Assembly (NCBI GenBank): GCA_048571035.1
Contig: CP121329.1
Coordinates: 2,978,455 to 3,042,454, forward strand
Length of the DNA stretch: 64,000 bases
From: Gammaproteobacteria bacterium
Lineage (GTDB): Bacteria > Pseudomonadota > Gammaproteobacteria > Pseudomonadales > Azotimanducaceae
Reading direction: 5' to 3'
The translations under genes were made by a program, and so were the position numbers. Each line of letters opens with the position of its first letter. Positions within the stretch are counted from its first letter, which is position 1. Under the pieces are notes generated by a model. That model saw only the letters and a list, made by a program, of their open reading frames with translations, ran no database searches and was not told where the DNA came from. Below are positions 11,069 to 61,764 of the stretch, piece after piece.

Positions 11069-11260
11069 AGTACGGCTCCAGAAGTAAGCGTCTCAGCATA
11101 GGTGAACGTTTCGTGGCCAACAAGCAGGCTTAAACGTTCTAACCTCGGCGAACAGGGGGATTGCACAATCCCCAGATGTCCGCGAGCATGCAGAAATGCC
11201 AGACGATGAAGTCATCATCAGGTTTAAACAAAGCTGATTGGAAAAAGGAACGCCAACAAC

Positions 11261-12088
11261 ATGACACAGTGGATGAAGTCAGGAAACAACGCGGTGATTA
11301 CCGGCGGTGCCAGTGGTATCGGTTTAGCAGCTGCCAGGAGATTTCTGGCCGCAGACATGCAGGTCCTCATTTCCGATATTGATGAAGAAGCGCTGCATCA
11401 AGCCAGTAAGGATCTGGGTGGGCAGGTTCTTTCCCATGTATGTGACGTTTCCCAATACGACGATGTTCAAGCCCTGCAGAAGTACGCTGCTGAACACATG
11501 GGGGTTACCCATTGCCTGATGAACAATGCAGGGGCAGGCGTGAGAACGCCTTCACCCTGGAAAGAACTTGAAAGCTGGAAGAAGCAGATAGACATTAATC
11601 TATGGGGAATTGTTCATGGTTGTCATGCTTTCCTTCCGTCCATGTTGGATGCGCAACTCAGATGTGCAGTTATCAATACGGGCTCTAAGCAAGGCATCAC
11701 CAACCCGCCGGGTAACTACGCCTACAATATGTCGAAATCAGCAGTAAAGGCCTATACAGAAAGCGTTGCGCATGCGCTAAGGCAGGAAGAAGACTGCAAA
11801 GTCACCGCACATTTGCTGATTCCGGGTTTTACTTATACAGGCATGATTGCGCGATTTTTGCCAGAGAAACCGGCGGGCGCCTGGCTGCCTGAGCAGGCGA
11901 TCGACTATATGTTGTCTGCCCTTGAGCGCGATGCTTTTTACATCCTCTGCCCTGACAACGACACACCAAGGGAGCTGGATGAGAAACGTATTCAATGGGG
12001 TGTGGATGACCTTATACAGGATCGTTCAGCTTTATCTCGCTGGGACCCTGCGTATAAGGATGCGTATGATGCGTTTCTGGCGAAATGA
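11261..12088 (+). CDS. Short-chain dehydrogenase/reductase
   Basis: TGGASGIG, NNAG, NTGS, YNMSK. Confidence 0.92.
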   Translation: MTQWMKSGNNAVITGGASGIGLAAARRFLAADMQVLISDIDEEALHQASKDLGGQVLSHVCDVSQYDDVQALQKYAAEHMGVTHCLMNNAGAGVRTPSPWKELESWKKQIDINLWGIVHGCHAFLPSMLDAQLRCAVINTGSKQGITNPPGNYAYNMSKSAVKAYTESVAHALRQEEDCKVTAHLLIPGFTYTGMIARFLPEKPAGAWLPEQAIDYMLSALERDAFYILCPDNDTPRELDEKRIQWGVDDLIQDRSALSRWDPAYKDAYDAFLAK

Positions 12089-12927
12089 GTAAACCCATGC
12101 TTCAACACCACTTACTAACGGTCTTTACCCTGCTGCTTTTTACCGTCGGCTTGATCGGCTGTACCAGCATGGCGCCAAGCGAAACACAGCAACAGATTCC
12201 CGAGATCGCACCTGGGGTACTGATGGGCTATACACCGATGGATGATCCCATGCTCAGTAAAGCCTTTGTTCTGCCGGCTCCTGCGCCAGACTCTCCTCGA
12301 CAGGTGATGGATGAAGCCGTCGCGGAAGAGATGCTTGCACTTAGAGGTACGCCTAGGTGGGCGCTGGCAACCCAGGATGCGCACCTGCGGTTTCCGGATG
12401 CTGCCGAGACTTTTACCTGCGCGCTGGGCCTGCCCATTACGCAGGAAGATACACCAGAGTTATACATGTTGCTGCGCAGAACCCTGGCAGACCTGGGCCT
12501 GGCTGCTTACTCAGCGAAAAACGCTTACCAGCGTGAGCGGCCATTTATGATAAACGGGCAGCCGATCTGCACGCCTGAGGAGGAAACGATGTTGCGTGAA
12601 GATGGTTCCTATCCGTCAGGCCATACCGCAATTGGCTGGGGCTGGGCTCTGATCCTTTCGGAACTTGCGCCGGACCGCGCTGAAGCCCTTTTGAACCGTG
12701 GTCGCGCTTACGGTGAGAGTCGCAACGTTTGTAATGTTCATTGGCGCAGCGACGTCGATGCCGGACGCCTGGTTGGTGCGGCAGCCGTTGCTCGTTTGCA
12801 TACAAACGACGCCTTTCTCAAGGCCATGTCAGCCGCGCGGACGGAAATTGCAAACCTGAAAGACAAAACCCCTGCGCCGGAGTTTGACTGTGCTTTGGAG
12901 TTACAGGTGCTGGGTGCAACTGAATGA
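12085..12927 (+). CDS. Class A non-specific acid phosphatase (PAP2), lipoprotein
   Basis: KNAYQRERP, SYPSGH, SRNVCNVHWRSDV motifs; LIGC lipobox. Confidence 0.9.
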   Translation: MSKPMLQHHLLTVFTLLLFTVGLIGCTSMAPSETQQQIPEIAPGVLMGYTPMDDPMLSKAFVLPAPAPDSPRQVMDEAVAEEMLALRGTPRWALATQDAHLRFPDAAETFTCALGLPITQEDTPELYMLLRRTLADLGLAAYSAKNAYQRERPFMINGQPICTPEEETMLREDGSYPSGHTAIGWGWALILSELAPDRAEALLNRGRAYGESRNVCNVHWRSDVDAGRLVGAAAVARLHTNDAFLKAMSAARTEIANLKDKTPAPEFDCALELQVLGATE

Positions 12928-13033
12928 AATCCGGCAAGATGCTTTACGGACAATGCTTGAATTGCGGATCTGAGTCTCACTTATTCAGCCCCCTTTGTCT
13001 TAAGATCCGCGTGTATTTAAGACAAGAGAGATC

Positions 13034-13570
13034 ATGGATATGAGCAAAAATAGACTGTTGATCGCGTGCGCGTTAGGGCTGTTTATGAGCTTCCCAACAA
13101 CAGCGTTTGCTGGTTCTGAAAGTGGCTTCTATCTTGGCGCGGGTCTGGGCCAGACTGATGTGGAGATCAGCGATTTTGATGAAAGTGATTCTGCTTACAA
13201 AATCTTTGGTGGTTACAATTTTGGTGTTGTGCCTTTGATCGACCTCGCTGTTGAGGCATCTTATGTCGATTTTGGTAATCCGGAATCAGGACCGTTGGGT
13301 GTTGAGCTGACCGCGCTTAACGCATTTGGGCTGGCGGGTTTCAAGGTAGGACCAATAGGTCTTTTTGCCAAAGCCGGTATGGTTGCCTGGGATGCAGAGC
13401 TATCTGTTGGTGCGTTCCGGGAAGATGAAAACGGCACAGACTTTGCCTACGGTGCCGGCGCAAGGTTCCAGATTGGCTCGTTTGCCATTCGAGCTGAATA
13501 CGAGGTTTATGAAGTCAGCGATGTCAGGGACCTTTCGATGGCTTCTGCCAGTCTGGTTTACACTTTCTAG
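13034..13570 (+). CDS. OmpA-like outer-membrane beta-barrel protein
   Basis: Signal peptide, GFYLGAGLG, AIRAEYE, terminal YTF. Confidence 0.85.
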   Translation: MDMSKNRLLIACALGLFMSFPTTAFAGSESGFYLGAGLGQTDVEISDFDESDSAYKIFGGYNFGVVPLIDLAVEASYVDFGNPESGPLGVELTALNAFGLAGFKVGPIGLFAKAGMVAWDAELSVGAFREDENGTDFAYGAGARFQIGSFAIRAEYEVYEVSDVRDLSMASASLVYTF

Positions 13571-13603
13571 CGTGATGCGCGCAAAAAGAAACGGTCGAGT
13601 CTT

Positions 13604-14734
13604 TTGAAGCGCGCTGCGAAATATGCAGGCATAACACTTCTGTTGGTGATTGCGATGCTTGCGATTTTGATGATTCCACCGGAGCATGTTCCGGTGGGTG
13701 ATCAAAGTACGCAATGGTATGCAGAAGGATCGCACGGTGTTATCGAGACGGTCGTAGAGTTTGAGGACAGTAGCCGCCCAACCGCAGCATATAAAGATTA
13801 CCCAGGTTCTGATTCTCGATCAATGACAGGCCGGATCTGGCAGCCGGAATCACAAACGCCGGCACCCCTGGTGTTCTATAGCCACGGATTCATGTCGTCT
13901 CACAGTGAAGGTGAATACATTGGCCGTTTCCTGGCTACACATGGCTATATCACTGTTGCCGTAGACTTTCCGCTGACTGGCGCAAGTGCGCCGGCAGGAC
14001 CATTGGTCACCGATGTTATCAACCAGCCGCAGGATGTGTCATTCGTGCTTGACCAACTGCTGGTGCGAAATCGTGACCAGGATGATCCTATGTATGGAAG
14101 GATTGATCCGCTGCGTGTTGCTGCAGTGGGTTTGTCACTGGGTGGTTTGACAACCGAGCTGGTCGCATTTCACAGTCAACTTAGAGACCCGCGGATTCGA
14201 GCCGCCGCATCAATAGCTGGTCCAACGGCTAACATGACCCGAGGTTTTTTTACCAGCCGGGTGCTTCCTTTCCTGATGCTGGCAGGCAGCTCTGATCAGA
14301 TAGTGCCCTATATTGGAAACGCACTACCCATTCTGAATAAAGCGCCTGGCGCGACCCTTGTTACACTTGATGCCGCGAGCCATGCAGGATTTGCAGCTCA
14401 AGCCGCTGGAGTTTTCCGGTTTGCAAATCACCCTGATGAGTGGGTTTGCCCCAGCCTGGTCAGTAATCTCGAAAATGGAGGCGAGCAACCGCTGTTCCAG
14501 GATGATCCTGAAGCAGGCCTTGTGTCCCGAACTGGTGTATTGCCTTGTCAAACAGATAAATTTGAAAGAGCAATGCGTCCGGCTGAACAGGTCACCTTCA
14601 TGCGTCTTGTCATTTACAGTTTCCTTGAGGCTGAGCTGGCAGACTCGGACGACCGTCGCAAGTCGGCAAAACACTTTCTAATGGAGGTGTTACCGGCGGA
14701 AAATCCGGAAGTAAAGGTCGCAGTCTCAACCTAG
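13604..14734 (+). CDS. Secreted or membrane-anchored alpha/beta hydrolase (PAF-acetylhydrolase/chlorophyllase-like)
   Basis: YSHG, GLSLGG nucleophile elbow, SSDQIV, ASHAGF. Confidence 0.85.
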   Translation: MKRAAKYAGITLLLVIAMLAILMIPPEHVPVGDQSTQWYAEGSHGVIETVVEFEDSSRPTAAYKDYPGSDSRSMTGRIWQPESQTPAPLVFYSHGFMSSHSEGEYIGRFLATHGYITVAVDFPLTGASAPAGPLVTDVINQPQDVSFVLDQLLVRNRDQDDPMYGRIDPLRVAAVGLSLGGLTTELVAFHSQLRDPRIRAAASIAGPTANMTRGFFTSRVLPFLMLAGSSDQIVPYIGNALPILNKAPGATLVTLDAASHAGFAAQAAGVFRFANHPDEWVCPSLVSNLENGGEQPLFQDDPEAGLVSRTGVLPCQTDKFERAMRPAEQVTFMRLVIYSFLEAELADSDDRRKSAKHFLMEVLPAENPEVKVAVST

Positions 14735-15116
14735 AGGCGTGACCGGCAGGTCGGCTTCCCAGTTGATCTAACAATTTCTTACCATGATAAATATTATGAC
14801 TTGCTGTTGACTTCTCTCAGTAGATTCGTTTTATATACAGGTAAGTGCTGAATCGGATCAAACAGTTGATCCAGCGTACGCCGTGTGCTGAGGGGCCACA
14901 AATGCTGCGTTTCAGCTACTGCAGGAGGGGAGAGACGTGGGTTGTAGAGGCTACGCTGATCTAACGCTTTCTGGCGTAAGCCTGTTACTTTTTCAATGTT
15001 TTGAGCATAAGCCTCAAGACCTTGAGCCTGCTGGTCGTATCTGTCCTCAATTGGTGTAGTTAGTTACTACATTTTCACGCCAAGACCAATTAGTCGCGGC
15101 AAAGGGGAGAGGGTTA

Positions 15117-18100
15117 ATGACTGTTTCACTGCGTGATGCACATGTCATCGCTATTGTTTTCTGTGTAAGCATACTAATTCCGTTGGCGTTTCAGCCTGTC
15201 TACGCCGAGTCAGCTGAAGGTAGGAGAATCGAAGAAGTGGTGGTCACCGCGGAACGGCGGGAATCCACCGTATCTGATACCGCTATTTCAATATCAGCTT
15301 TTGACGAAAAATTTCTTGATGATTTCAATATAAGAAATCAGGAAGACCTGCAGAACTATATTCCAGCCACAACCATACAGCCCTACGACGCCGCCATCCG
15401 TGGTGTTGGGCGCACCGCCAGAACTTTAGGTGGTGATCCTGGTGTGGCCACTTATTTCAACGGTGTTTACTCGGAGGATTTCGGTATCGCCTCCACTGAA
15501 GGTGGTTTAAAAGATCTCGAGCGCGTGGAAGTTTTACGGGGGCCTCAGGGCACTTTGTATGGCCGCAATGCGGTAGGAGGTGCGATCAACTTCGTCTCCA
15601 AACGTCCCAGCCTGGAAGAATTTGAAGGTGAAGTAGCCGCAACCTTTGGCAACTACGATACCCGTGAGGTGTTCTATATGTTGTCTGGTCCGGTGATAAA
15701 AGACAAGCTGGCGCTGCGCTTCTCCGGCACAGATCGCCATCGCGATGGCTACATCGAAGAGACGTCCGGTCAGGGTAAAGACATCAACAACTATGGCGAT
15801 GAAAACTACACACTCTCCCTGAACTGGACGCCGACAGATCGGATATCTATTTACGCTCGCGGCAACGAACGCAGTTATCGACGCCGCTTTAATGGTGGTG
15901 CAGGCACCATGCCGATCATCGTTGCGGAAAATGGTATACAGGACAGAGACACAACCAGCCTCACTTTTGGTAAGAGAGTTATTGACAGATCTCAAACCAC
16001 AAATGCCTGGCAGTCTGACTTTTTTGATCCGACGATGGAGGTTTTTTCTTTCACCAACCCGGTAACCGGGGCAATAGTGGAAGCACAGAATGTGCGGGCC
16101 GGTGTAGATATCCGCTCTTCTCTGACTGCAGTTGCGGGTATCAATCCGGATGGATCCATTATTTACGGGAAGTCTGACCCCACTGCGTCTTCGACTTCTC
16201 CCAACTACGCCCTTGGTCTGCCGCGGAATCGGGTGCATGTTGCTGACCGGGACGACCTGACGGAAAGTGACCTCAAGATAGACAGTAATGGCCAGTACGA
16301 TGAGTTTTTTGATCAGCAGGCACTGCAGTTCAACTTCATTTATACGGCGGATAACTGGGAGCTCAAGTATCTAGCCGGATACACAGATTTTTTCTATGAC
16401 CGCAATACCGATGAAGATAAAACGGGAAATCTGCGCTTAGGCAGTTCAGATTTTTATGTACTACAGGAGAATGAAAACTGGCAGCATGAACTGCAGCTGA
16501 CATTCGATACTGAGAACCTCTCAGTCACAACTGGATTGTTTGTTTACGACTCCACCATCAATCAGCGTCTTGATCTGTATGACCCTTTTGATACTCAGGG
16601 TCGTTATCAAGCCGATGCAGATTATTCTGGTCTTACTGGTGGAATTGATGAGTTTGGTGCGGTGTTGGCTCTGCTGGGCGGGCAGTCGACCCCGTTGCTG
16701 GACATTTATGATGCGCAGGAAGCATTTGAAGCTGGCACGCCGCTTGCCGCTAACGGCAGCGTTACGCTGTTCGCGCCCTGGTTTGGGGACACGGGCACAG
16801 GCCTGCGCGGCGCACGAAACGATGGCAAAAGCACTGCGGGAACTTTCTTTGCCTGGGATAACGACATCGATACTCGAGCTTACGCAGCGTACGCTCAGGC
16901 CGAATACGATTTTTCAGAGAAGTGGGCCATCACAATGGGTGTGCGTTACGCGCGTGACGAAAAAGAGGCCAGAGAACGCTTGATCGGTATCCAGGAATCT
17001 TTAGGTTTAACTGCTTTTGCCCTGTTTGATGCGGCAGTATATTTGCCGGTGCACCCACTTTCAGTGGTGGTGCTCAGGACTATATTGACAACAATCCCGA
17101 CGGTTTTGCCGCTTGTGGATCCGGCGCCAACCTTCTGTGTTTGTATAACGCTGTCAGCGGTGCGATTGACCCGACAGGTGCTACAACCGACGGGGGTATT
17201 CAGATAGGTGACCAGGGCACAAACCCAGGCGAAACAGCGGTTCGATTCTCAGGCGTACCGATCGCTTTTAATATTTATCGACCTTTAGAGAACGACTGGG
17301 ATGTCTGGACCTGGCGTGCCAATCTTGATTACGAGCCCACACCAGATACGCTGCTGTATTTTTCGGTGACGACGGGCTGGCGTTCAGGCGGCTATAACCT
17401 GGGATTCTTTTCAACGGCGACACCGGAATATGATGAAGAAAACATTATTGCCTATGAGTTGGGCTACAAAGGTACATTGTTAGACGGCCGCCTGCAGTTG
17501 AACACCTCTGTATTCATGTATCAGTACGATGATATTCATACCATTATCTCTCAATCCGGTGGTTTGCTTGGTGTCAGCACTAACGTTGTTAATGCTCCGG
17601 AAGCGCGTACCTATGGCTGGGAAGGCGACGTGCTGTTTCTGCTGGGCGACAGATTTACCATTGGCGGTAACTGGAGTTATACAAACGCAGAGTTCACTCA
17701 GGACTTTGCAGTTGTCGACGTGAATAACCCCGAAATACCAGGGTCGATTTTTACCGCCGCAGAGCAGACCGTCAGTGGCTTTGATGGCAGCAGCCTGCCA
17801 AAAATACCTGAGTGGAAATTCACCCTCTGGGGTAACTATTCAATTCCGCTGGGCGACTCTGGCAACCTGGATTTCTTTTCCACCGTGGGTTATACGGACG
17901 ACTTTTTCTTTGCGGCGCCATTTGAACGGGAGCTGGATCGAGCACCCAGTTTTACTCGCTGGGATGCACGCGCGGTTTGGACCAGTGCAGCGGGTAATTG
18001 GGAAGTATCTGCGTTTGTTAACAATATAACTGGGGAGTTGGGGGTCCGTTCGTTAGAAACTGAAGGCGGTGAAGAGTGGAACTTCCTGCGTACTGCTACA

Positions 18101-27166: not shown

Positions 27167-27184
27167 GGGGCTGCCAGTGGACAT

Positions 27185-27224
27185 AAGAGTCTAATTCGAA
27201 TAGTTGGTGATCAGAGACAGAATC
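27185..27224 (-). repeat. Distal att-like copy of the tRNA-Phe 3' end plus flank
   Basis: 34/40 identical to 34739-34778, sharing the core CAGAGACAGAATC. Confidence 0.85.
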
Positions 27225-27284
27225 AGCCGCCAATTTTTGCATAGGCTATACTGCGTTCTTCGTGTGCACTAAAAAGGGGAGATC

Positions 27285-28040
27285 ATGCGGTTTATCGCGC
27301 GATTGGTGCTTATGATCGGAGTGTTTTCCCCGGCTTGGGGAGAACTACCCGCCGAAAAACGGGTGTTGATAGTTGTGTCAAATGTCATTGATATGGGTGA
27401 TGCCGAAGCTCACGATGCCCGCAATAACCTCTGGGAGGTGGCTCCTCCATATCATGTCTTTCTCGCCCACGGCTACGAGGTCGACTTCGTTTCACCGAAA
27501 GGCGGCGCTGTTCAGTTTTCGATGGACCCTGTCGGCATCAGTAGCTACACAATAAAATACGAAGGATTCGCGGATCGAGCGAGCGCCTCACTCGGACCGT
27601 CCAAAGTAGATTCGAGCAAATACAGTGCCGTATTTATCGGCGGTGGGTACGGACCGCTATTTGACGTGGCATCAGACCCGGCACTTCTATCTTTGATTGC
27701 TGCGATCTATGAGGCTGGCGGTGTCGTAGGAGGTTGTGGTCACGGGCCGGGCGCTTTTGCAAACGTGGTTCTGAGCGATGGTCGCTTCATGGTGGCCGGA
27801 AAAAAAGTAGCGGGGTTTCCAAACTCCACAGAAAGATCGAAGTCTTGGGCCAAGCAAGGCGAGCTGTTGCCATTTCTAGTTGAAGATCAGCTGCGTAAAA
27901 ATGGCGCTAAGGTTATCAACAAAGAAAATATTGCGGACAAGACTGATGTCATCATTGATCAGCGAATCGTGTCCACAATGTTCCTGCCATCCGCGACCTG
28001 GGTCGCCAAGGAGATGATCAAGCTAATCGATGGCCATTGA
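27285..28040 (+). CDS. Secreted DJ-1/PfpI (type 1 glutamine amidotransferase-like) protein
   Basis: WEVAPPY, VDFVSPKGG, IGGGYGPLFD, GCGHGP; signal peptide. Confidence 0.85.
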   Translation: MRFIARLVLMIGVFSPAWGELPAEKRVLIVVSNVIDMGDAEAHDARNNLWEVAPPYHVFLAHGYEVDFVSPKGGAVQFSMDPVGISSYTIKYEGFADRASASLGPSKVDSSKYSAVFIGGGYGPLFDVASDPALLSLIAAIYEAGGVVGGCGHGPGAFANVVLSDGRFMVAGKKVAGFPNSTERSKSWAKQGELLPFLVEDQLRKNGAKVINKENIADKTDVIIDQRIVSTMFLPSATWVAKEMIKLIDGH

Positions 28041-28081
28041 TCTAGATGGTCCCATAACAAGTCACAAAAGACTGACTGGAT

Positions 28082-28154
28082 GTGTCCGCTTCTGGCCGAA
28101 AGCGGAATTAAATATAGCTCCTTATAACTTCCGCTTTCGACCCAAAACAGACTG
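28082..28154. repeat. Two-hairpin palindromic element, copy 1
   Basis: GTGTCCGCTTCTGGCCGAAAGCGGAA, spacer, ACTTCCGCTTTCGACCCAAAACAGAC. Confidence 0.85.
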
Positions 28155-28163
28155 ACGAGGAGC

Positions 28164-28667
28164 TTAGGTGTCAACTCCGTACCCTTTTAAAATTGAGCTT
28201 CTTTCAGCCGTATTAACCAGTACATCGACAAATTCTGTGAAATCAACTTCGTACAAATGGCGCCTTGATTCCCATAGCAGCTGACCAGAGGCGCTCGAGA
28301 AGTGAAGCCCCATATTTGCGACTAAGGGCTTCAGTTTGGCCTCATCGAGAAGACCTAGTTCAAATTGATGGTGGGCAGACTCTACCGACCTGAGAAGAAC
28401 GAGCATCCAGCTGTTGTATCGAAGCGTCTCAATCTCACTTAGCTCTCCGTTTGCTACACCCCTTTGGATGATCTCGATCAGTTCGGCGTCTCCCACCATT
28501 TGAAGCACAGCCTCATTTAAGCCGTTAGCAATGGAATCGAATGTCTGTCCTCGCACTGCCCGAGAATTTTCTCGCACCTGTATTCCCACATAGAAAAGTG
28601 ATGCCACAACTGCAATTGCTCCAGCTAACTCAGCAAACGCCCCTACCGCATCCCAATTCATATTCAT
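28164..28667 (-). CDS. Hypothetical membrane protein, MNW[DE]A-type family, paralog 1
   Basis: MNWDAVGAFAELAGAIAVVASLFYVGIQVREN; GGGGAG SD before ATG 28667. Confidence 0.75.
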   Translation of the reverse strand: MNMNWDAVGAFAELAGAIAVVASLFYVGIQVRENSRAVRGQTFDSIANGLNEAVLQMVGDAELIEIIQRGVANGELSEIETLRYNSWMLVLLRSVESAHHQFELGLLDEAKLKPLVANMGLHFSSASGQLLWESRRHLYEVDFTEFVDVLVNTAERSSILKGYGVDT

Positions 28668-28745
28668 GTATGTATCTCCCCTGTCGCCCAACGATGAATT
28701 AGACCAAAGTATGCAGCGAGTTCGACTTGCCTGCATCGAATCTTG

Positions 28746-28820
28746 ATGTCCGCAGTTGGCCGAAAGCGGAAGTAAATATCTACAGACGAAAAGGTCTGCT
28801 ATCGACCCGTACCCGACATT
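28746..28820. repeat. Two-hairpin palindromic element, copy 2
   Basis: ATGTCCGCAGTTGGCCGAAAGCGGAAGTAAATAT...GGTCTGCTATCGACCCGTACCCGACATT; 21/22 match to copy 1 over GGCCGAAAGCGGAAnTAAATAT. Confidence 0.85.
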
Positions 28821-28859
28821 TTGCATTAATGGCATACTCGCCAGAAAGTTGGAGAAATA

Positions 28860-29330
28860 GTGAACTGGGATGCATTAGGCGCCATCGGGGAGATTATTGG
28901 AGCTGGAGCTGTTGTTGCATCGCTCGTGTATTTGGCTGTTCAGATCAGAACCCAGAATAGAGAGACACGATTGAGTGCTATGCACGATCTATCGGTTGGA
29001 TTCCGGGAAGCGATCATTCCGTTTTCTGCGGAAGATATGTCCACCATTCTCGTGAAAGCGAACGAAGACTACGATTCTCTCTCTGACATTGAGGCCCAAA
29101 GGATCATTGTACTTATGGGGCAATTCTTTCGTGCATGGGAAGAAGCATTCATACAGCATCAGGAGGGACGATTAGATGAACGGCATTGGAACGCAATACT
29201 GAAGTACTACGTGAAGCTTCTAGGTGCACCTGCAATGCGAGTCGGTTGGGGGCTACGGAAAGCGTACATGGATGATGAGTTTGCTGCGTTTGTTGATAGC
29301 TTACCACTGGAAGAATACAAGACACGGTGA
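28860..29330 (+). CDS. Hypothetical membrane protein, MNW[DE]A-type family, paralog 2
   Basis: MNWDALGAIGEIIGAGAVVASLVYLAVQIR; GGAG SD before GTG. Confidence 0.78.
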   Translation: MNWDALGAIGEIIGAGAVVASLVYLAVQIRTQNRETRLSAMHDLSVGFREAIIPFSAEDMSTILVKANEDYDSLSDIEAQRIIVLMGQFFRAWEEAFIQHQEGRLDERHWNAILKYYVKLLGAPAMRVGWGLRKAYMDDEFAAFVDSLPLEEYKTR

Positions 29331-29460
29331 CAGCCGTTAGTTGCGCTAAAGAATGGTAGACGTTGTTGTCACTGAAAGTCTTGCTGACAGGATGGCTTGA
29401 TGCCGCAGTGGGCTGCCAACCGCCTGTTTTGAAGCCCTGCATCATCATGCTTGAAGACCA

Positions 29461-29530
29461 TTCCCGGGGAAGCGGTCACTCAGCCGAGCCGATTTCGTAC
29501 GACGGAAGACGACCCATTTCTACCGTTCGT
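29461..29530. repeat. Two-hairpin element, copy 3 (reverse orientation)
   Basis: AAGCGGTCACTCA (29470-29482) and CGACCCA (29510-29516) are shared with 30962-31006. Confidence 0.7.
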
Positions 29531-29581
29531 CGTTCCAGCTGTTTTGATATAGCCTTCCCCCTTCACCAGTGGAGGAAATCA

Positions 29582-30067
29582 ATGGATCATCAGACTTTCG
29601 CGGAGTTATTAGGCAACTATGGGGAATTCATTGGGTCAATCGCCGTGCTCGCGACGCTGGCTTACCTTGCAGCTCAGGTACGGAACTCCAACAAGTACGA
29701 AGCGGCCAAACACATCGACGTTCACATGGACCGAATTCGCGAGCGATTCCTCATGGTCGCGCAGAACGAAGACCTTGCCAGAATCGACCGCATTGCTCAT
29801 GAGGGAGGCAGCTTAGACCAAGATGAGAAATGGAGGTGGCGTGCACTCACCATACATCACATCCTCTGTATGCGTGACGCGTGGATGAGAGCTGACAGCC
29901 TGGGCGGTCTTCCGGGCCGGCCACCCCACTTCTACTTGGATATGCTGGCTGATCTGATCAAGCAACGGCCTGCCATGCGCGAAGTCTGGGACAAGGAATC
30001 ACCTGACAACCCGGCCTGGTCACATGAATTCGTTAGTTACGTCAATCTGAAACTGGCGCAAGAATAA
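29582..30067 (+). CDS. Hypothetical membrane protein, same family, paralog 3
   Basis: LGNYGEFIGSIAVLATLAYLAAQVR; GGAGG SD before ATG 29582. Confidence 0.75.
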   Translation: MDHQTFAELLGNYGEFIGSIAVLATLAYLAAQVRNSNKYEAAKHIDVHMDRIRERFLMVAQNEDLARIDRIAHEGGSLDQDEKWRWRALTIHHILCMRDAWMRADSLGGLPGRPPHFYLDMLADLIKQRPAMREVWDKESPDNPAWSHEFVSYVNLKLAQE

Positions 30068-30100
30068 GCGGTAGTGGCGCGCGGCAAATCTGCCTTTGAC

Positions 30101-30187
30101 GTGGCAGCTTCTGACCGTTCAGAGCCAGTTAGGTCGCGTTTATGGGTTTTCTGCATTTAATGTCGGCTTTCGGGAGAGTCGCGCCCG
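30101..30187. repeat. Two-hairpin element, copy 4 (degenerate)
   Basis: GGCAGCTTCTGACCGTTCAGAGCC...AATGTCGGCTTTCGGGAG. Confidence 0.6.
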
Positions 30188-30218
30188 AGCGAATGAAAGG
30201 AGCGGCTTTAACTGCATG

Positions 30219-30689
30219 TTAGAGATCGGCGCGCTCACAGTTCACTAATTCGCCTGGTTCGACAAATATAGCGGTCGCGATTCTCCATCGATCTGACTTA
30301 AACAATGTGTAAGTTCCACCGCTGATTGTCTCTGCACCATCCTGAAATATCCTTTTAAGCCGAAAGCTAAAAATCGCAACATTCTGGGAGAGCTTACAGG
30401 TCGAGGTTTCCCCGTATTCGCTTCTCACCCAGCCAGCTCTACCAATATCGGCGAGCATAGCCTCCATCCACTTTTCAGCATCTTGGTGAGAGCTGAAATT
30501 TAGGATCTCGGCCGGGGTTATGAACATGGCTGTCGGGTTAAAGTAGTTTCCTACCAATTCTTTAGCGCTATAGCCCTTGTTAAAGTCGACGAGGTAAGAC
30601 TTCATCGTCCCCGCAACGTCATCGCTAGCGCTTATGGTTCCGCTCTGCAGGAATAAGAAGAGAAAGACAATAAATGTGTATCTGCGCAT
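30219..30689 (-). CDS. Secreted NTF2/SnoaL-like hypothetical protein
   Basis: Signal peptide MRRYTFIVFLFLF..., C-terminal GGTYTLFKSDRWRIATA. Confidence 0.6.
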   Translation of the reverse strand: MRRYTFIVFLFLFLQSGTISASDDVAGTMKSYLVDFNKGYSAKELVGNYFNPTAMFITPAEILNFSSHQDAEKWMEAMLADIGRAGWVRSEYGETSTCKLSQNVAIFSFRLKRIFQDGAETISGGTYTLFKSDRWRIATAIFVEPGELVNCERADL

Positions 30690-30866
30690 GATGCTCCTTC
30701 TGATGTCTAACACCACTTATATGGATTCTGGGGTCCGTATAAAATGGGTCGTGAGTGATCTGATTTGAGTGCCATTCTCCTCTACCCATCAAGAACTTCG
30801 AGCACACTACACCAGTACTAGAATCCCAGCAAAAGCTTACAGAGAATTGAGAGTCAATATTTGTGC

Positions 30867-31020
30867 GCGAATGACTGAAGTTGGCCGTTCAGCGACGATT
30901 GATCACAGAGATTGAACGGCGGCTTTGTGGAATAGTTCGAGTAGATTCTAGAATATCTCCAAAGCGGTCACTCAAACCGCTTGGGCGAGCGGCAAAAAAC
31001 GACCCAGAACAGTCATTCGC
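30867..31020. repeat. Palindromic element cluster, copy 5: one unit plus an inverted two-unit element
   Basis: GCGAATGACTG at 30867-30877 and its perfect reverse complement at 31010-31020; GAATGACTGAAGTTGGCCG is 16/19 to 32524. Confidence 0.75.
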
Positions 31021-31146
31021 CAACAGACACTGAAATGGCGGGAAAAGCCTGAATAAATGCCCATACACCGCGAATTGGCTAGCTCTTTTAGCGGTCGCCA
31101 AGTGCATGTCCACGCGATAGAGTTAGCTATGTCATAGGGGATAACG

Positions 31147-32529
31147 ATGGCGGATGTCTTTGTATCATACGATTCAGACGATCGTGCACGGGTTGAGCCT
31201 CTAGTCCGCGAATTAGAGACCGCTGGGTTTGAGGTCTGGTGGGATCGACAGATAAACGCAGGGGAAAGTTTCGACAGGACTATCGAGCAGGAATTGTCTT
31301 CTGCCTCGTGCGTCCTTGTGGTTTGGTCAAAAAACTCCATCGATTCAGATTGGGTGCGCGAGGAAGCTGAAGAGGGTCAGCGCCGTGGCATCCTGATCCC
31401 CGTCCTAATCGACGAATGTCAGATTCCATTAGGTTTCCGGCGCGTTCAAGCTGAGCAGTTGATCGATTGGCCGGATAGTTCGTTGAACGCATCTAGCCTC
31501 ACCAGCCAGATAGCCGCGCTGATCCAAAAAGAGCCACTATCAGCTGCAGGTCATAGAAAGCCAAAATCTCGGCGTCGTATTCTCATCGTTGGGAGTCTGT
31601 CAGCTGTCGTACTGCTGATCGGCGGTTACCTGTACAGCGGTGCCATTATCGGTGGAGTGGTGATGAATGCACCGAAAAGATATTTCGGTGAGCCTATTGA
31701 TCAGCAACTTGGTGTCGCAACCTCTGCAGATGGCACACGGATAGCCTATGCGCTTTCAGGCGATGGTCCGCCTTTAGTCTACGTACTTGGATGGATGACT
31801 CACCTTGAAAAGGGGTTTAACAGTCCTGTTTATGACAATGAACTGCTTGTGGAGATGACCTCACGAAATCACAGATTCTTGCGCTACGACGGGCGGGGTT
31901 TCGGCATGTCTCAGCGCAGCGTTAAGGATTTTTCCCTTACGGCTCGCGTCGCGGATCTTAAGGCGGTCGTCGATGCCGCTGGTTTCAAGCAATTTAGAAT
32001 CCTGGCGGCTTCATCGGGAGGCCCTGTTGCCATCGCGTTCACCGCTCAATACCCAGACAGAGTCAACGGACTTGTATTGGGAAGCTCGTTTGCGTCCAAC
32101 TCATGGGTTACTGAAGAGGAGCGTGAAACGGCAGATCAATTTTGGAGCCTCATTGAGACATCGTGGGATATGTTCCCACCCGTCTCGGACATGTTCGCCA
32201 ATATGACGCTTGCGCCCACAGGAGATATGGTAGAACAGGGGGTTCTAGGGTCGATGTTGCGTCGCTGCTGTAACGGGCCAAACGTTGCGAACTACTTCCG
32301 AGAAACGACTCGATTGGATGTCAGGGAGCAGGCCAAGCGAATCAAAGTGCCTACGCTCGTGATACATGCTCGTGACGATCAAGCGACACCGCTAGAGGGA
32401 GGAAAAGAGTTGGCGTCCTTAATTCCTGGGGCCCGTTTCCAAATCGTGGAGGGCGGCCATCGTGAGGGGACGGCGAGCACAGCAGAAACGCGCCAGTTGG
32501 TTCTGAACTTCTTGGATGTAATTGAATGA
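31147..32529 (+). CDS. TIR domain - TM helix - alpha/beta hydrolase fusion
   Basis: DVFVSY, EVWWD, SDWVREEA (TIR); RRRILIVGSLSAVVLLIGGYLY (TM); LRYDGRGFGMS, AASSGG, HARDD, GGH (hydrolase). Confidence 0.85.
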   Translation: MADVFVSYDSDDRARVEPLVRELETAGFEVWWDRQINAGESFDRTIEQELSSASCVLVVWSKNSIDSDWVREEAEEGQRRGILIPVLIDECQIPLGFRRVQAEQLIDWPDSSLNASSLTSQIAALIQKEPLSAAGHRKPKSRRRILIVGSLSAVVLLIGGYLYSGAIIGGVVMNAPKRYFGEPIDQQLGVATSADGTRIAYALSGDGPPLVYVLGWMTHLEKGFNSPVYDNELLVEMTSRNHRFLRYDGRGFGMSQRSVKDFSLTARVADLKAVVDAAGFKQFRILAASSGGPVAIAFTAQYPDRVNGLVLGSSFASNSWVTEEERETADQFWSLIETSWDMFPPVSDMFANMTLAPTGDMVEQGVLGSMLRRCCNGPNVANYFRETTRLDVREQAKRIKVPTLVIHARDDQATPLEGGKELASLIPGARFQIVEGGHREGTASTAETRQLVLNFLDVIE

Positions 32530-32600
32530 CCGTTGTTGGCCGAATACGGCCCCTTTTGAGGGTTACTGCTAAAGTCGGTTTTCGACCCAAAACGCTCGTT
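32524..32600. repeat. Two-hairpin element, copy 6
   Basis: GAATGACCGTTGTTGGCCGAATACGG...AAGTCGGTTTTTCGACCCAAAAC; TTTCGACCCAAAAC is identical to 28135-28148; contains the TIR gene stop codon. Confidence 0.8.
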
Positions 32601-32618
32601 CAATACAGGTCGGCGCGC

Positions 32619-33533
32619 TCAGTGCTCAGCAACAAACTCTGCGAGTTCCGCTTGGAGGAACTCTTGGAGTGCGATCACTGCTGCGGTATAGCCGCGTCGT
32701 CGGGACATAACTAAATTGAGATGTGCCCGGCCCACATGCCACTCTGGCAACACTTTGATCAACTGACCGGATGCCAATTCGTCCCTGCACGTGTAAGCAG
32801 GTAGCGCCACGATACCGAGGCCTTCAGTTGCGGTTTGCTTCAAGGTGGCCATATCGTCGCTCTTTAACCTGGGTTCAATTTGAACATATTTTTTCTCACC
32901 AGATTTGTGTTCCAGTTTCCAGCGCTCGCCCGCGGCTTGCCAACCAAGGACAAGCGTCTGTTGGTTCTCGAGATCTGATGGTGTCGCAATCGATTTTTCC
33001 GTATTTGAATAGTGGGGTGAGGCAAACAAGTTCCATTCAACAACCGCTAGCGGTCTCTGTACCAGCGTTGAGTCAGGCAGTGGGTCAGTGTGTCCACGGA
33101 TCGACATATCAATACCGGCGGCGACGAGATCAACGGTCTGGTTTGTCACCTGTTGCAGCACTGTGACTTGTGGATTGTCCGCCAGAAAACGAGCCAATAA
33201 TTCTTTCAGCACGAACTGAGCAACACCGACCGAACAACTCAGGGAGACTTTTCCGGACAAGGTGTTTTTCTTACGTTTAAGTGCAGCCTCAGCAAGTTCT
33301 GTTTGGTCGACCGCAGCGCGCGCATGTTGGTAGAAGACCTCGCCAAGCTCGGTGATTTTAGATTGGCGAGTCGTCCGTTGGATCAAGATTGCATCCAGAC
33401 GCTCCTCTAGCTGTGCGATATGCCTGCTCAGTCTTGATTTGGGAATCCCTAGCGCTTCGGCTGCGCGCGTAAACCCTCCTTTTTCGACCACGTGCACAAA
33501 GTAGTAGTAGTCGTTTAAATCGATAGGTGCCAT
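32619..33533 (-). CDS. LysR-type transcriptional regulator
   Basis: GFTRAAEALGIPKSRLSRHIAQLEERL helix-turn-helix. Confidence 0.93.
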   Translation of the reverse strand: MAPIDLNDYYYFVHVVEKGGFTRAAEALGIPKSRLSRHIAQLEERLDAILIQRTTRQSKITELGEVFYQHARAAVDQTELAEAALKRKKNTLSGKVSLSCSVGVAQFVLKELLARFLADNPQVTVLQQVTNQTVDLVAAGIDMSIRGHTDPLPDSTLVQRPLAVVEWNLFASPHYSNTEKSIATPSDLENQQTLVLGWQAAGERWKLEHKSGEKKYVQIEPRLKSDDMATLKQTATEGLGIVALPAYTCRDELASGQLIKVLPEWHVGRAHLNLVMSRRRGYTAAVIALQEFLQAELAEFVAEH

Positions 33534-33650
33534 TGGAACCCCGGGCTCGATTGTTCTGAATATAGGATTATATATTCTAATACTGGCTCTACTAGCTCTA
33601 ATTGTCCTGCTTTTATACTTACTGCGAGCTTAACCAACAGGATTTAGAAT

Positions 33651-34550
33651 ATGAACGCCATCAACACCGCAGGTAATCAAAGCTTCAAATCTGGAAAAAT
33701 GGCTGCCTTATCCGAGCCATTACACGGAACAGATCTCTCGATCGGAAATGGTTTCGAAGCACAGAGTTTCCGAGCTCAAGAAGTCGGACAACTTATGGAT
33801 CCGTTAGTGATGGTCGATCATTATGTGATGACCGCACCTACTTTTGGAGCACACCCTCATGCAGGTATGTCTGCGGTGTCATTGCTGTTCGAAGACAGCG
33901 AGGGCCTTTTTCACAACCGTGATTCACTCGGCAATGATTTTGATCTGCGGCCTGGGGATCTGTATTGGCTCAAAGCAGGTAGTGGTGCTGTTCATGATGA
34001 ATCACCGCGAGTTGATGCTCGAACTCACGGATTGCAGGTATTCGTTAACGTACCTCAGGCCCAACGCTTCGAGGATCCTGAGTCGATCTTAGTTCGAGCT
34101 GAAGATATGCCGGTGATCAGCAACGAAGAATATCGTGTAAAGATCGCCTTGGGTGAATCCAATGGCGTTAGCGGTGCAATTTCTCCGTCAATCCAAATGA
34201 CCATATTGGATGGCGCTATCCAACCGGGCGGACGTTTTGCGTATGAGTCAACCTCGAATCGAGGCATTTGGATTCAAGCAGTGGCGGGAAATCTGGTTAT
34301 CGTCGTCGAGGGGGAGGTTAGGTCCTTGAATCAGGGTGAGGCACTTGCCGTCAGCGCGACCAGGGCGGCTGACATTGGGATCAATAATCCGTCCCATGAG
34401 TCCGTGCACTTTGCCTTGTTCGATGGGGAACAGATTGATGAATCCTATGTGCAAGATGGTCCCTTCGTAATGGGATCCAAAGAAGAGATCGCAGATATCA
34501 AAGTCGCTTACGAAGCGGGTCAATTAGGCTTGATCGCAGACAGCGTCTGA
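33651..34550 (+). CDS. Pirin family protein
   Basis: DPLVMVDH, FGAHPHAG, GAVHDE, QVFVN, GPFVM. Confidence 0.92.
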   Translation: MNAINTAGNQSFKSGKMAALSEPLHGTDLSIGNGFEAQSFRAQEVGQLMDPLVMVDHYVMTAPTFGAHPHAGMSAVSLLFEDSEGLFHNRDSLGNDFDLRPGDLYWLKAGSGAVHDESPRVDARTHGLQVFVNVPQAQRFEDPESILVRAEDMPVISNEEYRVKIALGESNGVSGAISPSIQMTILDGAIQPGGRFAYESTSNRGIWIQAVAGNLVIVVEGEVRSLNQGEALAVSATRAADIGINNPSHESVHFALFDGEQIDESYVQDGPFVMGSKEEIADIKVAYEAGQLGLIADSV

Positions 34551-34569
34551 CACTCTCCATTTTGATTCA

Positions 34570-34644
34570 AACGATCGCAAATAGCCGAAATCTGCCGTCC
34601 AATCCGATTTTGAGCATGACCGCTTAGAAGTGATTAGCAGTCAT
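34570..34644. repeat. Two-hairpin element, copy 7, next to the att region
   Basis: ACGATCGCAAATAGCCGAAATCTGCC...ATGACCGCTTAGAAGTGATTAGCAGTCAT (hairpin). Confidence 0.6.
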
Positions 34645-34658
34645 GCAAGTAAGAAGTG

Positions 34659-34683
34659 ATAGATGATGGGCAGAGACAGAATC
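34659..34683 (-). repeat. Proximal att-like copy of the tRNA-Phe 3' end
   Basis: ATAGATGATGGGCAGAGACAGAATC vs ATAGATGGTGGCCAGAGACAGAATC (23/25). Confidence 0.8.
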
Positions 34684-34758
34684 AACCTGCAACCGCGTTT
34701 TGGTGACACAGTGTCGACAGAAAGGCGTGCCTAAACACAAGAGTCTGATTTAAATAGA

Positions 34759-34834
34759 TGGTGGCCAGAGACAGAATCGAACTGGGGACACGGCGATTTT
34801 CAGTCGCCTGCTCTACCAACTGAGCTATCTGGCC
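34759..34834 (-). tRNA. tRNA-Phe (GAA), 76 nt, CCA encoded
   Basis: Acceptor stem GGCCAGA/TCTGGCC, D arm GCTC/GAGC, anticodon stem GGCGA/TCGCC with loop CTGAAAA, T loop TTCGATT; T stem has 2 mismatches. Confidence 0.92.
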
Positions 34835-42232: not shown

Positions 42233-43717
42233 TTAGCGTACCGGAGGTGGATTACCCATTTGCTGACTGTCTACTCTGCGTGCAGGGACAAAGCGGGCAG
42301 TCGTTTCAGAGCTGTGCACCTGCTCCAGCCAGATCACCCCATCGTAAGGTTCGCTGTTGCCGCGGGTGCCGACAAAGTCCAGGTCGCCATCGTGATCCAG
42401 ATCGAGGGCAAGCCATTTGTCATACATGCCACGTTTGCGACGCACAATATCGTGTTGTGGCCAGGGTTGTGCGTTGCTGTTCACACCCGGGTTTTCGAAC
42501 CAGCTGATGCGGCCGAGGGCATCGGCGGCGGTTATCTCATCCCCATCCTGACCGCGGGGGCCGCGACTGTATGAACCTGCAAACGCATCCAGGTCGCCAT
42601 CATTGTCGATGTCCGCCAGTCTTACGGAGACCAGCTGGTCCGGAGCGAAATCACCGATAAGGGTGGTTGGCCAGGCGCTGCCAGCATCAACCGGACGCCG
42701 CAGCCATAAAAGATAGCTGGGCCAGGCGGTGGAAATGACATCGGTGCGCCCATCTGCATTGAGGTCAGCGTAATCCATGTTGAATCCGGTCAACGCTGCG
42801 TTGGACGGCTTGTTTTCCGCTGCAGGATTGATAGCGTGGTTGGTAAATCTGAAATCACCCAGATTCTCAAGCCACATGATGCGGCCTTCACCCCGTGAAC
42901 CAGCGATAACATCCAGGTCGCCGTCAGCGTCAATATCGACAGGCTCAGAATTGATTGGAATGCGTACCTGAGCAATCACCTGCTCGCGCCACAGTTCGCC
43001 GTCGAGAGGTTTGTCCGGCAGGTGATAAATAGAAATGTTGAGTAGGTGTTGCTGCTGCGTGACGTCGGGGTTTTGTTCACCTTTATTTGGGGCGACAACT
43101 TCGGGCCTGCCGTCGTTGTCAAAATCAGCGAAGAAAACCCGGATGTAAGAACCTCTATTCTGTGTGATGGCTGGAATTGTCCGCGCCCAGGTTTGTGTGC
43201 GTGCGGTTTTACCCGGGTTTTCGAAGTAGATCAGATGAGCCAGTTCTGCAGCTACAACAATGTCCGGATAGCCATCGTTGTTGGCGTCGGCAATGGAAAC
43301 GTCTTCAGCTGCGGCAGCTTCAGTGCCGGAAGCCAGGGTTGTCAGGCTCCACTGCTCAGGGTTACTGCTGCCCCAGGCGATGCGCACGTGACCGATGGGT
43401 TTGCCGTCATAGATGGTGTCAGATTCATGCACAGACACAATGTCCGGCCAGCCGTCGAGATCCAGGTCTGCTACCGCCAGACCGTCGCTGCCACTCAAGT
43501 CCATCTGCGCGAGTGCCGGATCGTCGATGATATGTTCGCGCCAGCTGATGTACTGGCCATTGCTGTGTCGTACCTGAGCAGGTCTTTCGCCGACAGGCAA
43601 ATCCGCGTGGCTGTTTGTGTCGGCGGGAGCCGACAGCGGAGCAACACAGAACATGCAGACCAACAACCTCGCAGTTATGTTAGCGCGCCACCCAGCTGAT
43701 CGGATCTTTGGCATCAC
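42233..43717 (-). CDS. Secreted FG-GAP/VCBS repeat beta-propeller protein
   Basis: Repeated DLDLDGWPDIV, DANNDGYPDIV, DFDNDGRPEVV, DIDADGDLDVI, DLNADGRTDVI, DIDNDGDLDAF, DLDHDGDLDFV. Confidence 0.88.
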   Translation of the reverse strand: MMPKIRSAGWRANITARLLVCMFCVAPLSAPADTNSHADLPVGERPAQVRHSNGQYISWREHIIDDPALAQMDLSGSDGLAVADLDLDGWPDIVSVHESDTIYDGKPIGHVRIAWGSSNPEQWSLTTLASGTEAAAAEDVSIADANNDGYPDIVVAAELAHLIYFENPGKTARTQTWARTIPAITQNRGSYIRVFFADFDNDGRPEVVAPNKGEQNPDVTQQQHLLNISIYHLPDKPLDGELWREQVIAQVRIPINSEPVDIDADGDLDVIAGSRGEGRIMWLENLGDFRFTNHAINPAAENKPSNAALTGFNMDYADLNADGRTDVISTAWPSYLLWLRRPVDAGSAWPTTLIGDFAPDQLVSVRLADIDNDGDLDAFAGSYSRGPRGQDGDEITAADALGRISWFENPGVNSNAQPWPQHDIVRRKRGMYDKWLALDLDHDGDLDFVGTRGNSEPYDGVIWLEQVHSSETTARFVPARRVDSQQMGNPPPVR

Positions 43718-61668: not shown

Positions 61669-61706
61669 AAGAGCGTTCCAGTTACGTTATTGGACCACAA
61701 ATATGT

Positions 61707-61736
61707 AAAAAAAAGCCCTGCTATTAGCAGGGCTTT
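61707..61736 (-). terminator. Rho-independent terminator after the glutamine synthetase gene
   Basis: AAAGCCCTGCT-ATT-AGCAGGGCTTT hairpin with a T8 run on the minus strand. Confidence 0.88.
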
Positions 61737-61764
61737 GTAACCGAACCGTAAAATGTCTCCAGAC

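Follow-up and report, generated by a model that had tools for sequence, protein, structure and literature searches.

Two-unit palindromic elements at the module junctions of a tRNA-Phe island: candidate recombination sites of a non-integron gene-cassette system

The DNA described here, hereafter “the window,” is a stretch of 64,000 nucleotides from a gammaproteobacterium of the Azotimanducaceae (GenBank assembly GCA_048571035.1, contig CP121329.1, positions 2,978,455 to 3,042,454). At 27.2–34.8 kb it holds an island of seven gene modules, with genes on both strands, whose junctions carry a palindromic element made of two units, “A” and “B” (Table 1); this element, a candidate recombination site, is our subject. 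The island is bordered on the right by tRNA-Phe (GAA), beyond which lie housekeeping genes (an Fe(2+)-trafficking protein, mutY, and asmA), and on the left by a direct copy of the tRNA-Phe 3′ end together with 24 downstream bases. The 3′ end and downstream bases of the tRNA gene occur in three direct copies altogether (27181–27233, 34659–34692, and 34735–34787), which suggests two successive integrations at tRNA-Phe. Among the gene family matches in the island there is neither an integrase nor a transposase.

Modules 2, 3, and 4 are each a module of their own, on different strands, and match no Pfam or NCBIfam family; read from their translations, without a tool alignment, they appear to be paralogous and to begin with an N-terminal hydrophobic helix each. 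The module 3 family has 543 homologues in metagenomes, constant in length. The N-terminus of module 5 looks by eye like a signal peptide. Module 6 has a TIR_2 domain with weak likeness to Thoeris and retron TIR proteins, apparently joined to the hydrolase by a membrane-spanning stretch (again read by eye), and is a possible anti-phage defence gene.

Table 1. Features of the island in window coordinates. R1 is the covariance model of the element; L numbers and X3 are comparison sequences treated in the text.
Feature	Position	Strand	Remarks
Distal tRNA-Phe 3′-end repeat	27181–27233		Repeat families D4, D8; 84% identical to 34735–34778
Module 1, DJ-1/PfpI family gene	27285–28040	+	Family match; block 27272–28043 recurs in L131–L133, 92%
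Element e1	28076–28152 (R1 match 28074–28159)	+	R1 65 bits; unit A 28085–28106 (TCCGCTT-CTGGCCGA-AAGCGGA); unit B motif TCGACCCA 28137–28144
Module 2, 167-aa protein of uncharacterised family	28164–28667	−	No family match
Element e2	28746–28818 (R1 match 28738–28824)	+	R1 63 bits; motif A within 28756–28763; motif B (ATCGACCC) 28801–28808
Module 3, 156-aa uncharacterised protein	28860–29330	+	Block 28801–29516 98.9% identical in L047
Element e3, degenerate	29446–29531	+	R1 17 bits; motif B (CGACCCA) 29510–29516
Module 4, ~161-aa apparent paralogue of module 3	29583–30067	+	70%-identical copy precedes module 3 in L047
Junction e4, decayed remnant	30100–30190	+	No R1 match
Module 5, 156-aa protein	30219–30689	−	Block 30134–30887 conserved at 93% in L138–L141
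Element e5, ~100-nt spacer	30863–31021	+	R1 21 bits; motif A 30880–30887; motif B (CGACCCA) 31000–31006
Module 6, TIR domain fused to alpha/beta hydrolase	31147–32529	+	Absent as a whole from L138–L141, X3
Element e6	32518–32604	+	R1 61 bits; motif A (GTTGGCCG) 32535–32542; motif B (TCGACCCA) 32582–32589
Module 7, LysR regulator 32619–33533 (−) and pirin 33651–34550 (+)	32619–34550	divergent
Element e7, degenerate	34563–34649	+	R1 16 bits
Second partial tRNA-Phe 3′-end copy	34659–34692		Repeat family D4
tRNA-Phe (GAA)	34759–34834	−	Right island border

Anatomy and covariation of the element

The element is an imperfect palindrome of 70–90 nt, running from an outer arm through the motif CTGGCCGA, an inner arm, a spacer, a second inner arm, and the motif TCGACCCA to a second outer arm. 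Its consensus over 36 copies is GAATGTCCGCTT-CTGGCCGA-AAGCGGACAT, a spacer of 4 to ~100 nt, and GTCCGCTT-TCGACCCA-AAGCGGACATTCG. Unit “B” is an inverted and slightly altered unit “A,” the four arms being mutually complementary, and the strand can fold either as two small hairpins or as one long hairpin, the latter with an outer stem, a centre that is complementary at 5/8 positions, an inner stem, and a variable end.

Conservation was read from alignments of 18 and of 36 copies, taken from the window and seven other genomes. In both, TGGCCGA and TCGACCC are invariant or nearly so while the arms vary, and they vary in step: the copy at 32.5 kb has CCGT/ACGG where the consensus has CCGC/GCGG. Pairing is kept in 73.5% of cells for the two-hairpin fold and 73.2% for the long hairpin, as against 31–39% in slid controls, and 12 and 15 pairs across the two schemes show changes on both sides; the two pairings are thus kept equally well. 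Some of the arm pairs are kept through G-U-type changes.

The covariance model R1, built from 18 copies (three from the window, fifteen from other genomes), finds six copies in the window, 6/6 on the plus strand and 6/6 inside the island, three of them strong (61–65 bits) and three weak (16–21 bits). A search with TTGGCCGAAAGCGGAA at up to 3 mismatches gives 4 matches against 0.62 expected, a count reached by no shuffle. The 56 kb of the window that flank the island contain no copy by R1, and with the filters off the sole extra match at E < 0.01 is at 61706–61785, a plain terminator hairpin lacking the family motifs. The hairpin itself (61706–61740, AAAAAAAGCCCTGCTATTAGCAGGGCTTT) lies between convergent open reading frames (ORFs) and is no member of the family.

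These results bear directly on the first-pass annotation of this DNA, which was made from the letters alone. The two-unit palindromes that it described are real, and the four exact blocks that it reported as shared are all present: GGCCGAAAGCGGAA at 28094 and 28758, TTTCGACCCAAAAC at 28135 and 32580, AAGCGGTCACTCA at 29470 and 30962, and GCGAATGACTG at 30868 with its complement at 31010. It was likewise right that a stop codon falls inside an element, namely that of the TIR/hydrolase gene (32527–32529) in the outer arm of e6, and in noticing no copies outside the island. Its claim of an element at every junction holds for three intact and three weak copies and breaks down at 30.1 kb, where R1 recognises nothing; related contigs keep a clear unit “B” (AAACGTCTGATTTCGACCCTTTCCGACC) at this same junction, so the window copy, e4, must have decayed. 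The positions 30867 and 31020, which it gave as separate pieces, are the two ends of the single element e5, whose outer arms GCGAATGACTG and CAGTCATTCGC pair over 11 bp.

Decay is seen in folding as well. As single-stranded DNA, e1 scores z = −4.2 against its shuffles and the other window copies −0.35 to −1.5, while a canonical copy from Noviluteimonas folds into one long hairpin at z = −7.05; from the weak scores we take about half of the window copies to be degenerate and the array to be partly decayed. An 8-bp direct repeat, AGACTGAC, stands directly on both sides of e1 (28068–28075 and 28151–28158) and could be a target duplication or chance; no target duplication is seen at e2, e6, or the copies of the Noviluteimonas locus described below, whose flanks were read by eye.

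Neither the consensus nor the invariant columns of the two alignments contain the AAC and GTT boxes of integron attC sites. The elements are therefore not canonical attC, as the first-pass annotation had also held, and this assignment was rejected. They have no GTAG tag, and CGTC or TGTC, frequent at the start of an arm, is base-paired there. In the CGTC-tagged repetitive extragenic palindromes (REPs) of Di Nocera et al., for which no transposase is known, the tag is unpaired, the stems are 8–9 bp, and the loops 4–5 nt (PMC3733652). Membership in that family was rejected as well, the stem and loop sizes not fitting: the loops here are 8 nt and conserved.

Could the hairpins act in RNA? They would then be terminators, stabilisers, or small RNAs at gene ends, and their position would simply reflect the boundaries of transcription units. 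They do come right after stop codons, in one case overlapping the codon, some arm pairs survive G-U-type changes, and hairpins of the REP type stabilise upstream mRNA (PMC3733652). We nevertheless hold this to be improbable: the orientation of the elements is fixed regardless of gene direction (modules 2 and 5 are on the minus strand, all elements on the plus strand), no T-run follows the hairpins, and a search of the window against Rfam, at gathering thresholds and at E = 10, matched nothing except the tRNA (Rfam contains no attC family). Also left unexplained would be the nested recombinase gene and the breakpoints at the motifs, to which we now turn.

Co-oriented arrays in other genomes and a small recombinase

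A strict pattern scan was made over one genome per species, and its counts are those among the matches listed. On this footing, true relatives of the element occur in Noviluteimonas caseinilytica, Agrilutibacter niabensis, Ralstonia condita, and four metagenome-assembled genomes (one of Chromatiales, two of Pseudomonadales, and one gammaproteobacterial), with one locus per genome; the window's own genome is not among the matches listed. Xanthomonadales, Pseudomonadales, and Burkholderiales alike have arrays of the element, on one strand and between accessory genes. Noviluteimonas has 13 copies or half-copies in an 8-kb locus (L010), all on one strand within 6.1 kb and each coming after a small ORF without a family match. 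Locus L007 has six copies on one strand with modules in both orientations, the genes between them being for a globin, a SnoaL-like protein, TetR plus a metallo-beta-lactamase-fold protein, a tannase, and a P450, and L026 has 4 copies, again on one strand. An array of the window type in L109 has 13 elements on one strand, ~1 kb apart, in which unit “B” is nearly identical in all copies and unit “A” is often degenerate. At the Agrilutibacter niabensis locus (L025, 5752–6990) the elements lie ~2.5–4 kb from a P4-type integrase with an arm-binding domain, that is, in an integrative island.

A variant with the same arms and other centres (CTGGCACA, ATGAGCGAA) is found in 328 plasmid records, mostly of Pantoea, Klebsiella, and Enterobacter. 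On pEuc1 of Pantoea eucalypti, ~14 copies are spread over 30 kb between GNAT, GST, VOC, and LysR-plus-enzyme genes. On the complete plasmid of Pantoea sp. BRR-3P (NZ_CP155068.1, 163,397 bp), model R2 places 23/23 copies on one strand: 20 lie at 37.8–99.2 kb, in a 61-kb cargo segment between transfer genes of the type found in integrative and conjugative elements (ICEs), and the other three at 132.5–138.8 kb, among ~64 kb of small hypothetical and signalling genes. The replication, partition, and transfer regions of this plasmid contain no R2 copies. From ordinary REPs one would expect dispersal, the very reverse of such clustering. Judged on the window, eight other loci, and this one complete plasmid, though on no whole chromosome, the copies are clustered and on one strand, not dispersed like REPs; a genome-wide REP as the main explanation was dropped in view of the one-strand clusters in L010, L007, L109, and the Pantoea plasmid. 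A different matter is a ~160-nt fragment of the E. coli plasmid pERB9a1 (L044, 6630–6800), which has a unit-B-like hairpin beside IS26 and recurs at ~98% identity in several hundred plasmids of Klebsiella, Enterobacter, Salmonella, and others; it has probably spread with IS26.

The first-pass annotation had noted no IntI, RAYT, or Cas gene near the elements, and the window indeed has no enzyme gene; a candidate is found elsewhere, nested within the element itself. On pEuc1, a gene for a 200-aa “site-specific integrase” lies antisense between the outer arm plus motif of unit “A” and the motif plus outer arm of unit “B,” taking the place of the inner arms and spacer. An 85%-identical gene on an E. 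coli IncF plasmid is likewise bracketed by element halves in quite different surroundings, as is a 63%-identical gene on a Polaromonas plasmid, there with the window's own motif (TCGGCCAGAAGCGGACATTC). The protein is strongly conserved, ~200 aa long, and of the Pfam family Phage_integrase, with the usual catalytic residues. Among solved structures the catalytic domains of XerD, XerA, XerC, and XerH come closest to it (E about 1e-6), and only ~35 residues of the protein lie in front of its catalytic domain. Plasmid records with a member of the family number 443 and come from many orders.

A metagenome scan with the alignment of this family gave 80 loci, 55 of them with enough flank. The arm plus motif lies upstream of the gene in 24 of the 55, its inverse downstream in 33, and both together in 18, compared with 26 of 597 control windows. 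In the Polaromonas-like loci (L051–L068) the distances are ~150 nt upstream and ~105 nt downstream. Arms differ between loci, yet within each the outer arms stay inverted copies of one another, and the inner arms likewise. (When inverted repeats of any kind were sought around the recombinase genes, noise in GC-rich DNA swamped the result.) In the 13-element array of L109, the gene has a complete unit “B” on one side and a complete unit “A” on the other, both inverted, and every element of the array is on the strand opposite to it; elements near a recombinase gene are mostly antisense to the gene (15/19 loci). Among ~60 selected ORFs from the island region and the element-bearing loci, Pfam finds no IS200-like transposase family. 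Enterobacterial plasmids were also searched for an empty site of the recombinase-bearing element, and the sole shorter variant is an uninformative IS26-mediated deletion. A pseudogene remnant of the small recombinase (15096–15233) is seen in L048, whose accessory-gene array at 9745–15411 includes a module 3 homologue; the junction element there is longer (~130 nt), begins with GTTGGCCG, and ends with TGTGCCCAnAGCCGAC.

The likeness to integrons and attC clusters is considerable. In both there are co-oriented arrays of imperfect palindromes, one per module, conserved in structure above sequence; the presence and order of modules vary between relatives, and arrays without a recombinase occur. 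Even the layout of the long hairpin is like that of a folded attC, with its R box, unpaired spacer, L box, and variable end, and the co-oriented sites after small orphan ORFs in L010 resemble a sedentary chromosomal integron. One might thus take the elements for divergent but genuine attC sites, clustered without an integron integrase, and this we consider the least probable of the explanations treated here, to be held only with great reluctance. In place of RYYYAAC/GTTRRRY boxes, two 8-nt central motifs are conserved. Integron-integrase models, with their cut-offs at 265–435 bits, give the recombinase 15 bits; at ~200 aa it is too short for the insertion specific to IntI, and it lies inside a site and not beside attI and a promoter. 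The modules, finally, are in either orientation and are not promoterless, some being regulator-gene pairs that carry their own regulators.

Modules gained, lost, and reordered between related genomes

The first-pass annotation had proposed a comparison of cassette order among strains, and such a comparison, made mostly on public metagenome contigs, shows modules gained, lost, and reordered, with the breakpoints at the 8-nt motifs. Contig L047 shares with the window, as a near-identical block, the module 3 segment alone (28801–29516, 98.9%), and both flanks of this block are unrelated. Its boundaries are the first base of motif “B” in e2 and the last base of motif “B” in e3. Upstream of module 3, this contig has the 70%-identical copy of module 4, whose homology also starts at motif “B”; since this copy precedes module 3, the order of the two modules is reversed.

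In four independent assemblies (L138–L141) and the run X3, window sequence 30134–30887 is followed by sequence of their own (28 nt by BLAST, 61 nt by eye) and then by ~32597–34581. What they lack is the TIR/hydrolase module, exactly and as a whole; their homology to the window stops with the final base of the e5 motif “A” (30887), and one hybrid element forms the junction. A third arrangement is found in L131–L133, in a chromosomal context different from that of the window (P450, TRAP transporter, cysNC): the DJ-1 block directly adjoins the LysR–pirin block (32581–34583, 93%), homology to the latter beginning in the e6 motif “B” (32581). The LysR–pirin block recurs at 93–94% in L131–L133 and L138–L141 in other contexts, and all three kinds of relative split from the window, and from one another, at 34581–34583, where e7 begins. 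Two Pantoea plasmids (L041 and L043), 90% identical over 6 kb, lose homology right after motif “A.” Seven independent homology breaks thus lie within a few bases of the 8-nt motifs.

What kind of exchange leaves such breaks? The stretches that different copies share identically are roughly 16–25 nt. Efficient RecA-dependent exchange needs a minimal length of identity, and 16–25 nt is at or below it, so homologous exchange is disfavoured. The occurrence of a 98.9%-identical module beside a 70%-identical neighbour indicates that the module was exchanged and not the repeat alone.

The main rival explanation must be weighed here, and it has much in common with the reading that we prefer. The elements could be selfish repeats in the manner of miniature inverted-repeat transposable elements (MITEs) or of REP doublets forming hairpins (REPINs), the autonomous form carrying the recombinase and the short forms being copied into intergenic DNA and piling up in accessory regions, where insertions are tolerated; differences in module content would then come from homologous recombination or from independent insertions. 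In architecture the elements match a REP doublet, in which a spacer separates two imperfect palindromes in inverted orientation (PMC3337134, PMC3116915), and the recombinase gene flanked by two ends parallels the gene of the REP-associated tyrosine transposase (RAYT) flanked by REPs. Many arms start with CGTC or TGTC, like the CGTC-tagged REPs (PMC3733652). The 8-bp repeat flanks e1, and e1 might be a later addition, since the DJ-1 block stops short of it. Co-orientation, too, could stem from a replication-strand bias. A bias of this kind is known from IS200/IS605 elements.

Against it stand the clustering (no copies in the 56-kb flanks, 20 of the 23 copies in 37% of the plasmid, and one locus per genome among the matches listed) and the lack of a target duplication at the other copies read by eye. 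The seven homology breaks lie near the 8-nt motifs and not at the ends of the element, and the near-identical module beside its diverged neighbour fits poorly. To our knowledge, tyrosine recombinases of the integrase fold do not move by copy-and-paste. We therefore regard a selfish repeat as unlikely, though as the alternative that deserves to be taken most seriously.

A possible cassette system and its relation to known ones

The reading that we favour, and consider rather probable, is that the elements are the recombination sites of a gene-cassette system other than the integron, served by the family of small recombinases described above. A small Xer-like tyrosine recombinase would exchange strands at or beside the 8-nt motifs. 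Recombination of two co-oriented sites would cut out the intervening gene or genes along with a single reconstituted site; run in reverse, the reaction would place them at any other site, so that single genes or regulator-plus-enzyme pairs, in either orientation, would become exchangeable modules. We infer a site-specific and not a homologous exchange, catalysed by this recombinase and passing through circular intermediates. Because the centres of “A” and “B” differ at 3/8 positions, exchange would be expected between “A” and “A” and between “B” and “B,” not between “A” and “B,” and this would explain why breaks occur at either motif. The substrate may be a folded single strand, recognised by its hairpin loops or by the mismatched centre of the long hairpin; two features fit this, namely the covarying arms with conserved centres and a recombinase without a normal core-binding domain. 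Alternatively, it may be two ordinary double-stranded core sites of 10+8+10 bp.

Gene capture at these elements had been proposed by the first-pass annotation, and of this proposal the exchange of modules at the motifs and an enzyme, as yet a candidate, acting in trans have gained support, while the window array appears as a decaying relic and not as an active platform. It is best seen as an orphan, ageing relic, carried as cargo by a tRNA-Phe island that has lost its own integrase: a seven-module array that would correspond to a cluster of attC sites without integrase.

Several observations weigh against the cassette reading. A tblastn search of the window with four members of the small family detects no tyrosine recombinase, and the complete Pantoea plasmid with 23 sites carries no such recombinase either, so that enzyme and site are linked by association only. 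Most window copies fold no better than shuffled sequence. From a classical double-stranded core site one would expect the reverse of what is seen here, conserved “spacer” motifs with free arms. Some comparisons place the breakpoint at motif “A” and others at motif “B,” and the DJ-1 block ends at 28043, three bases past the stop codon and before e1. Contig misjoins at repeats may have occurred, yet the stretches that copies share identically appear shorter than the 31-nt assembly words, and the two main arrangements recur in 3–5 independent assemblies. With a strict genome scan read from the matches listed, copies may be dispersed in some genomes, and a sigma factor and an undecaprenyl-diphosphatase family gene among the flanking genes in L109 could be core genes.

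Closest in mode of operation, besides the integron, are the plasmid dif (pdif) modules of Acinetobacter, which are moved by XerC/XerD and bounded by ~28-bp sites in inverted pairs (PMC6449649, PMC13141974). Both systems have accessory genes in either orientation, sites composed of an arm, a short centre, and an arm, shuffling between replicons, and an enzyme supplied in trans, the candidate here being Xer-like. By its consensus a dif site is 28 bp long and has a 6-nt centre between XerC and XerD arms (such as TTATGTTAAAT). The present elements have instead two identical arms, an 8-nt centre, and two units per junction; the arms, (AT)GTCCGCTT and AAGCGGAC(AT), bear no likeness to those of XerC/XerD; the elements are found in many orders of Proteobacteria; and a dedicated small recombinase would take the place of the chromosomal XerCD.

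With REPIN–RAYT pairs, REPs, and bacterial interspersed mosaic elements (BIMEs) the elements share two inverted palindromic units with a spacer, a presumed enzyme gene between the units, 20–40-nt imperfect palindromes as inverted doublets, and an intergenic position near stop codons. They differ in the enzyme, which is a tyrosine recombinase of the integrase fold and not an IS200-like HUH/Y1 transposase, apparently in the lack of an unpaired GTAG or CGTC tag, and in copies clustered on one strand and not dispersed. DDE-type MITEs have terminal inverted repeats and a target-site duplication of fixed length; here there are inverted ends, and the 8-bp direct repeat is seen at e1 only among the copies read. 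A further system, rAID-1, the recombinase-associated immunity-gene arrays of Bacteroidales, was reportedly described by Ross et al. in 2019 as integron-like. By this description it resembles the present one in its arrays of small orphan genes, conserved repeats, and tyrosine recombinase, and is unlike it in phylum, in having the recombinase at the head of the array, and in its repeats. In essence, the system works like an integron or the Acinetobacter dif modules, yet in its distinguishing features it belongs to neither, nor to the REP/RAYT family.

A wider reading can be advanced tentatively, at a little short of even chances: that a second, integron-independent cassette system is widespread in Proteobacteria, in which a minimal ~200-aa recombinase, housed in its own site, would recognise two-unit hairpin sites by their 8-nt centres and move single genes or regulator-gene pairs, in either orientation, between chromosomal islands, ICE cargo, and plasmids. 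Its host range would take in marine Gammaproteobacteria, Xanthomonadales, Burkholderiales, and the large plasmids of Pantoea, Klebsiella, and Enterobacter. Integrons are the textbook route by which single genes are stockpiled and shuffled, and Xer-dependent dif modules are a narrower second example. The present system, if real, would be a third, with its own small recombinase and its own type of site, and would explain how small accessory genes in islands and megaplasmids are assembled and exchanged. It would not require promoterless, co-oriented cassettes, and it would reach the plasmids of clinically and agriculturally relevant Enterobacterales. For annotation pipelines the element would be a new marker of variable regions, for genome engineering the recombinase and its site would make a compact pair, and the recombinase might provide the missing enzyme of transposase-less palindromic repeats such as the CGTC-tagged REPs.

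A search of open-access full text by sequences, protein accessions, and keywords found no published description of the element or the recombinase. The window proteins gave no match by exact look-up in the assembly index, and a search of viral contigs gave none either. Outside the island, at 42370–43470, a large gene contains internal repeats of ~350 nt (families D1–D3), likely a repeated protein domain.

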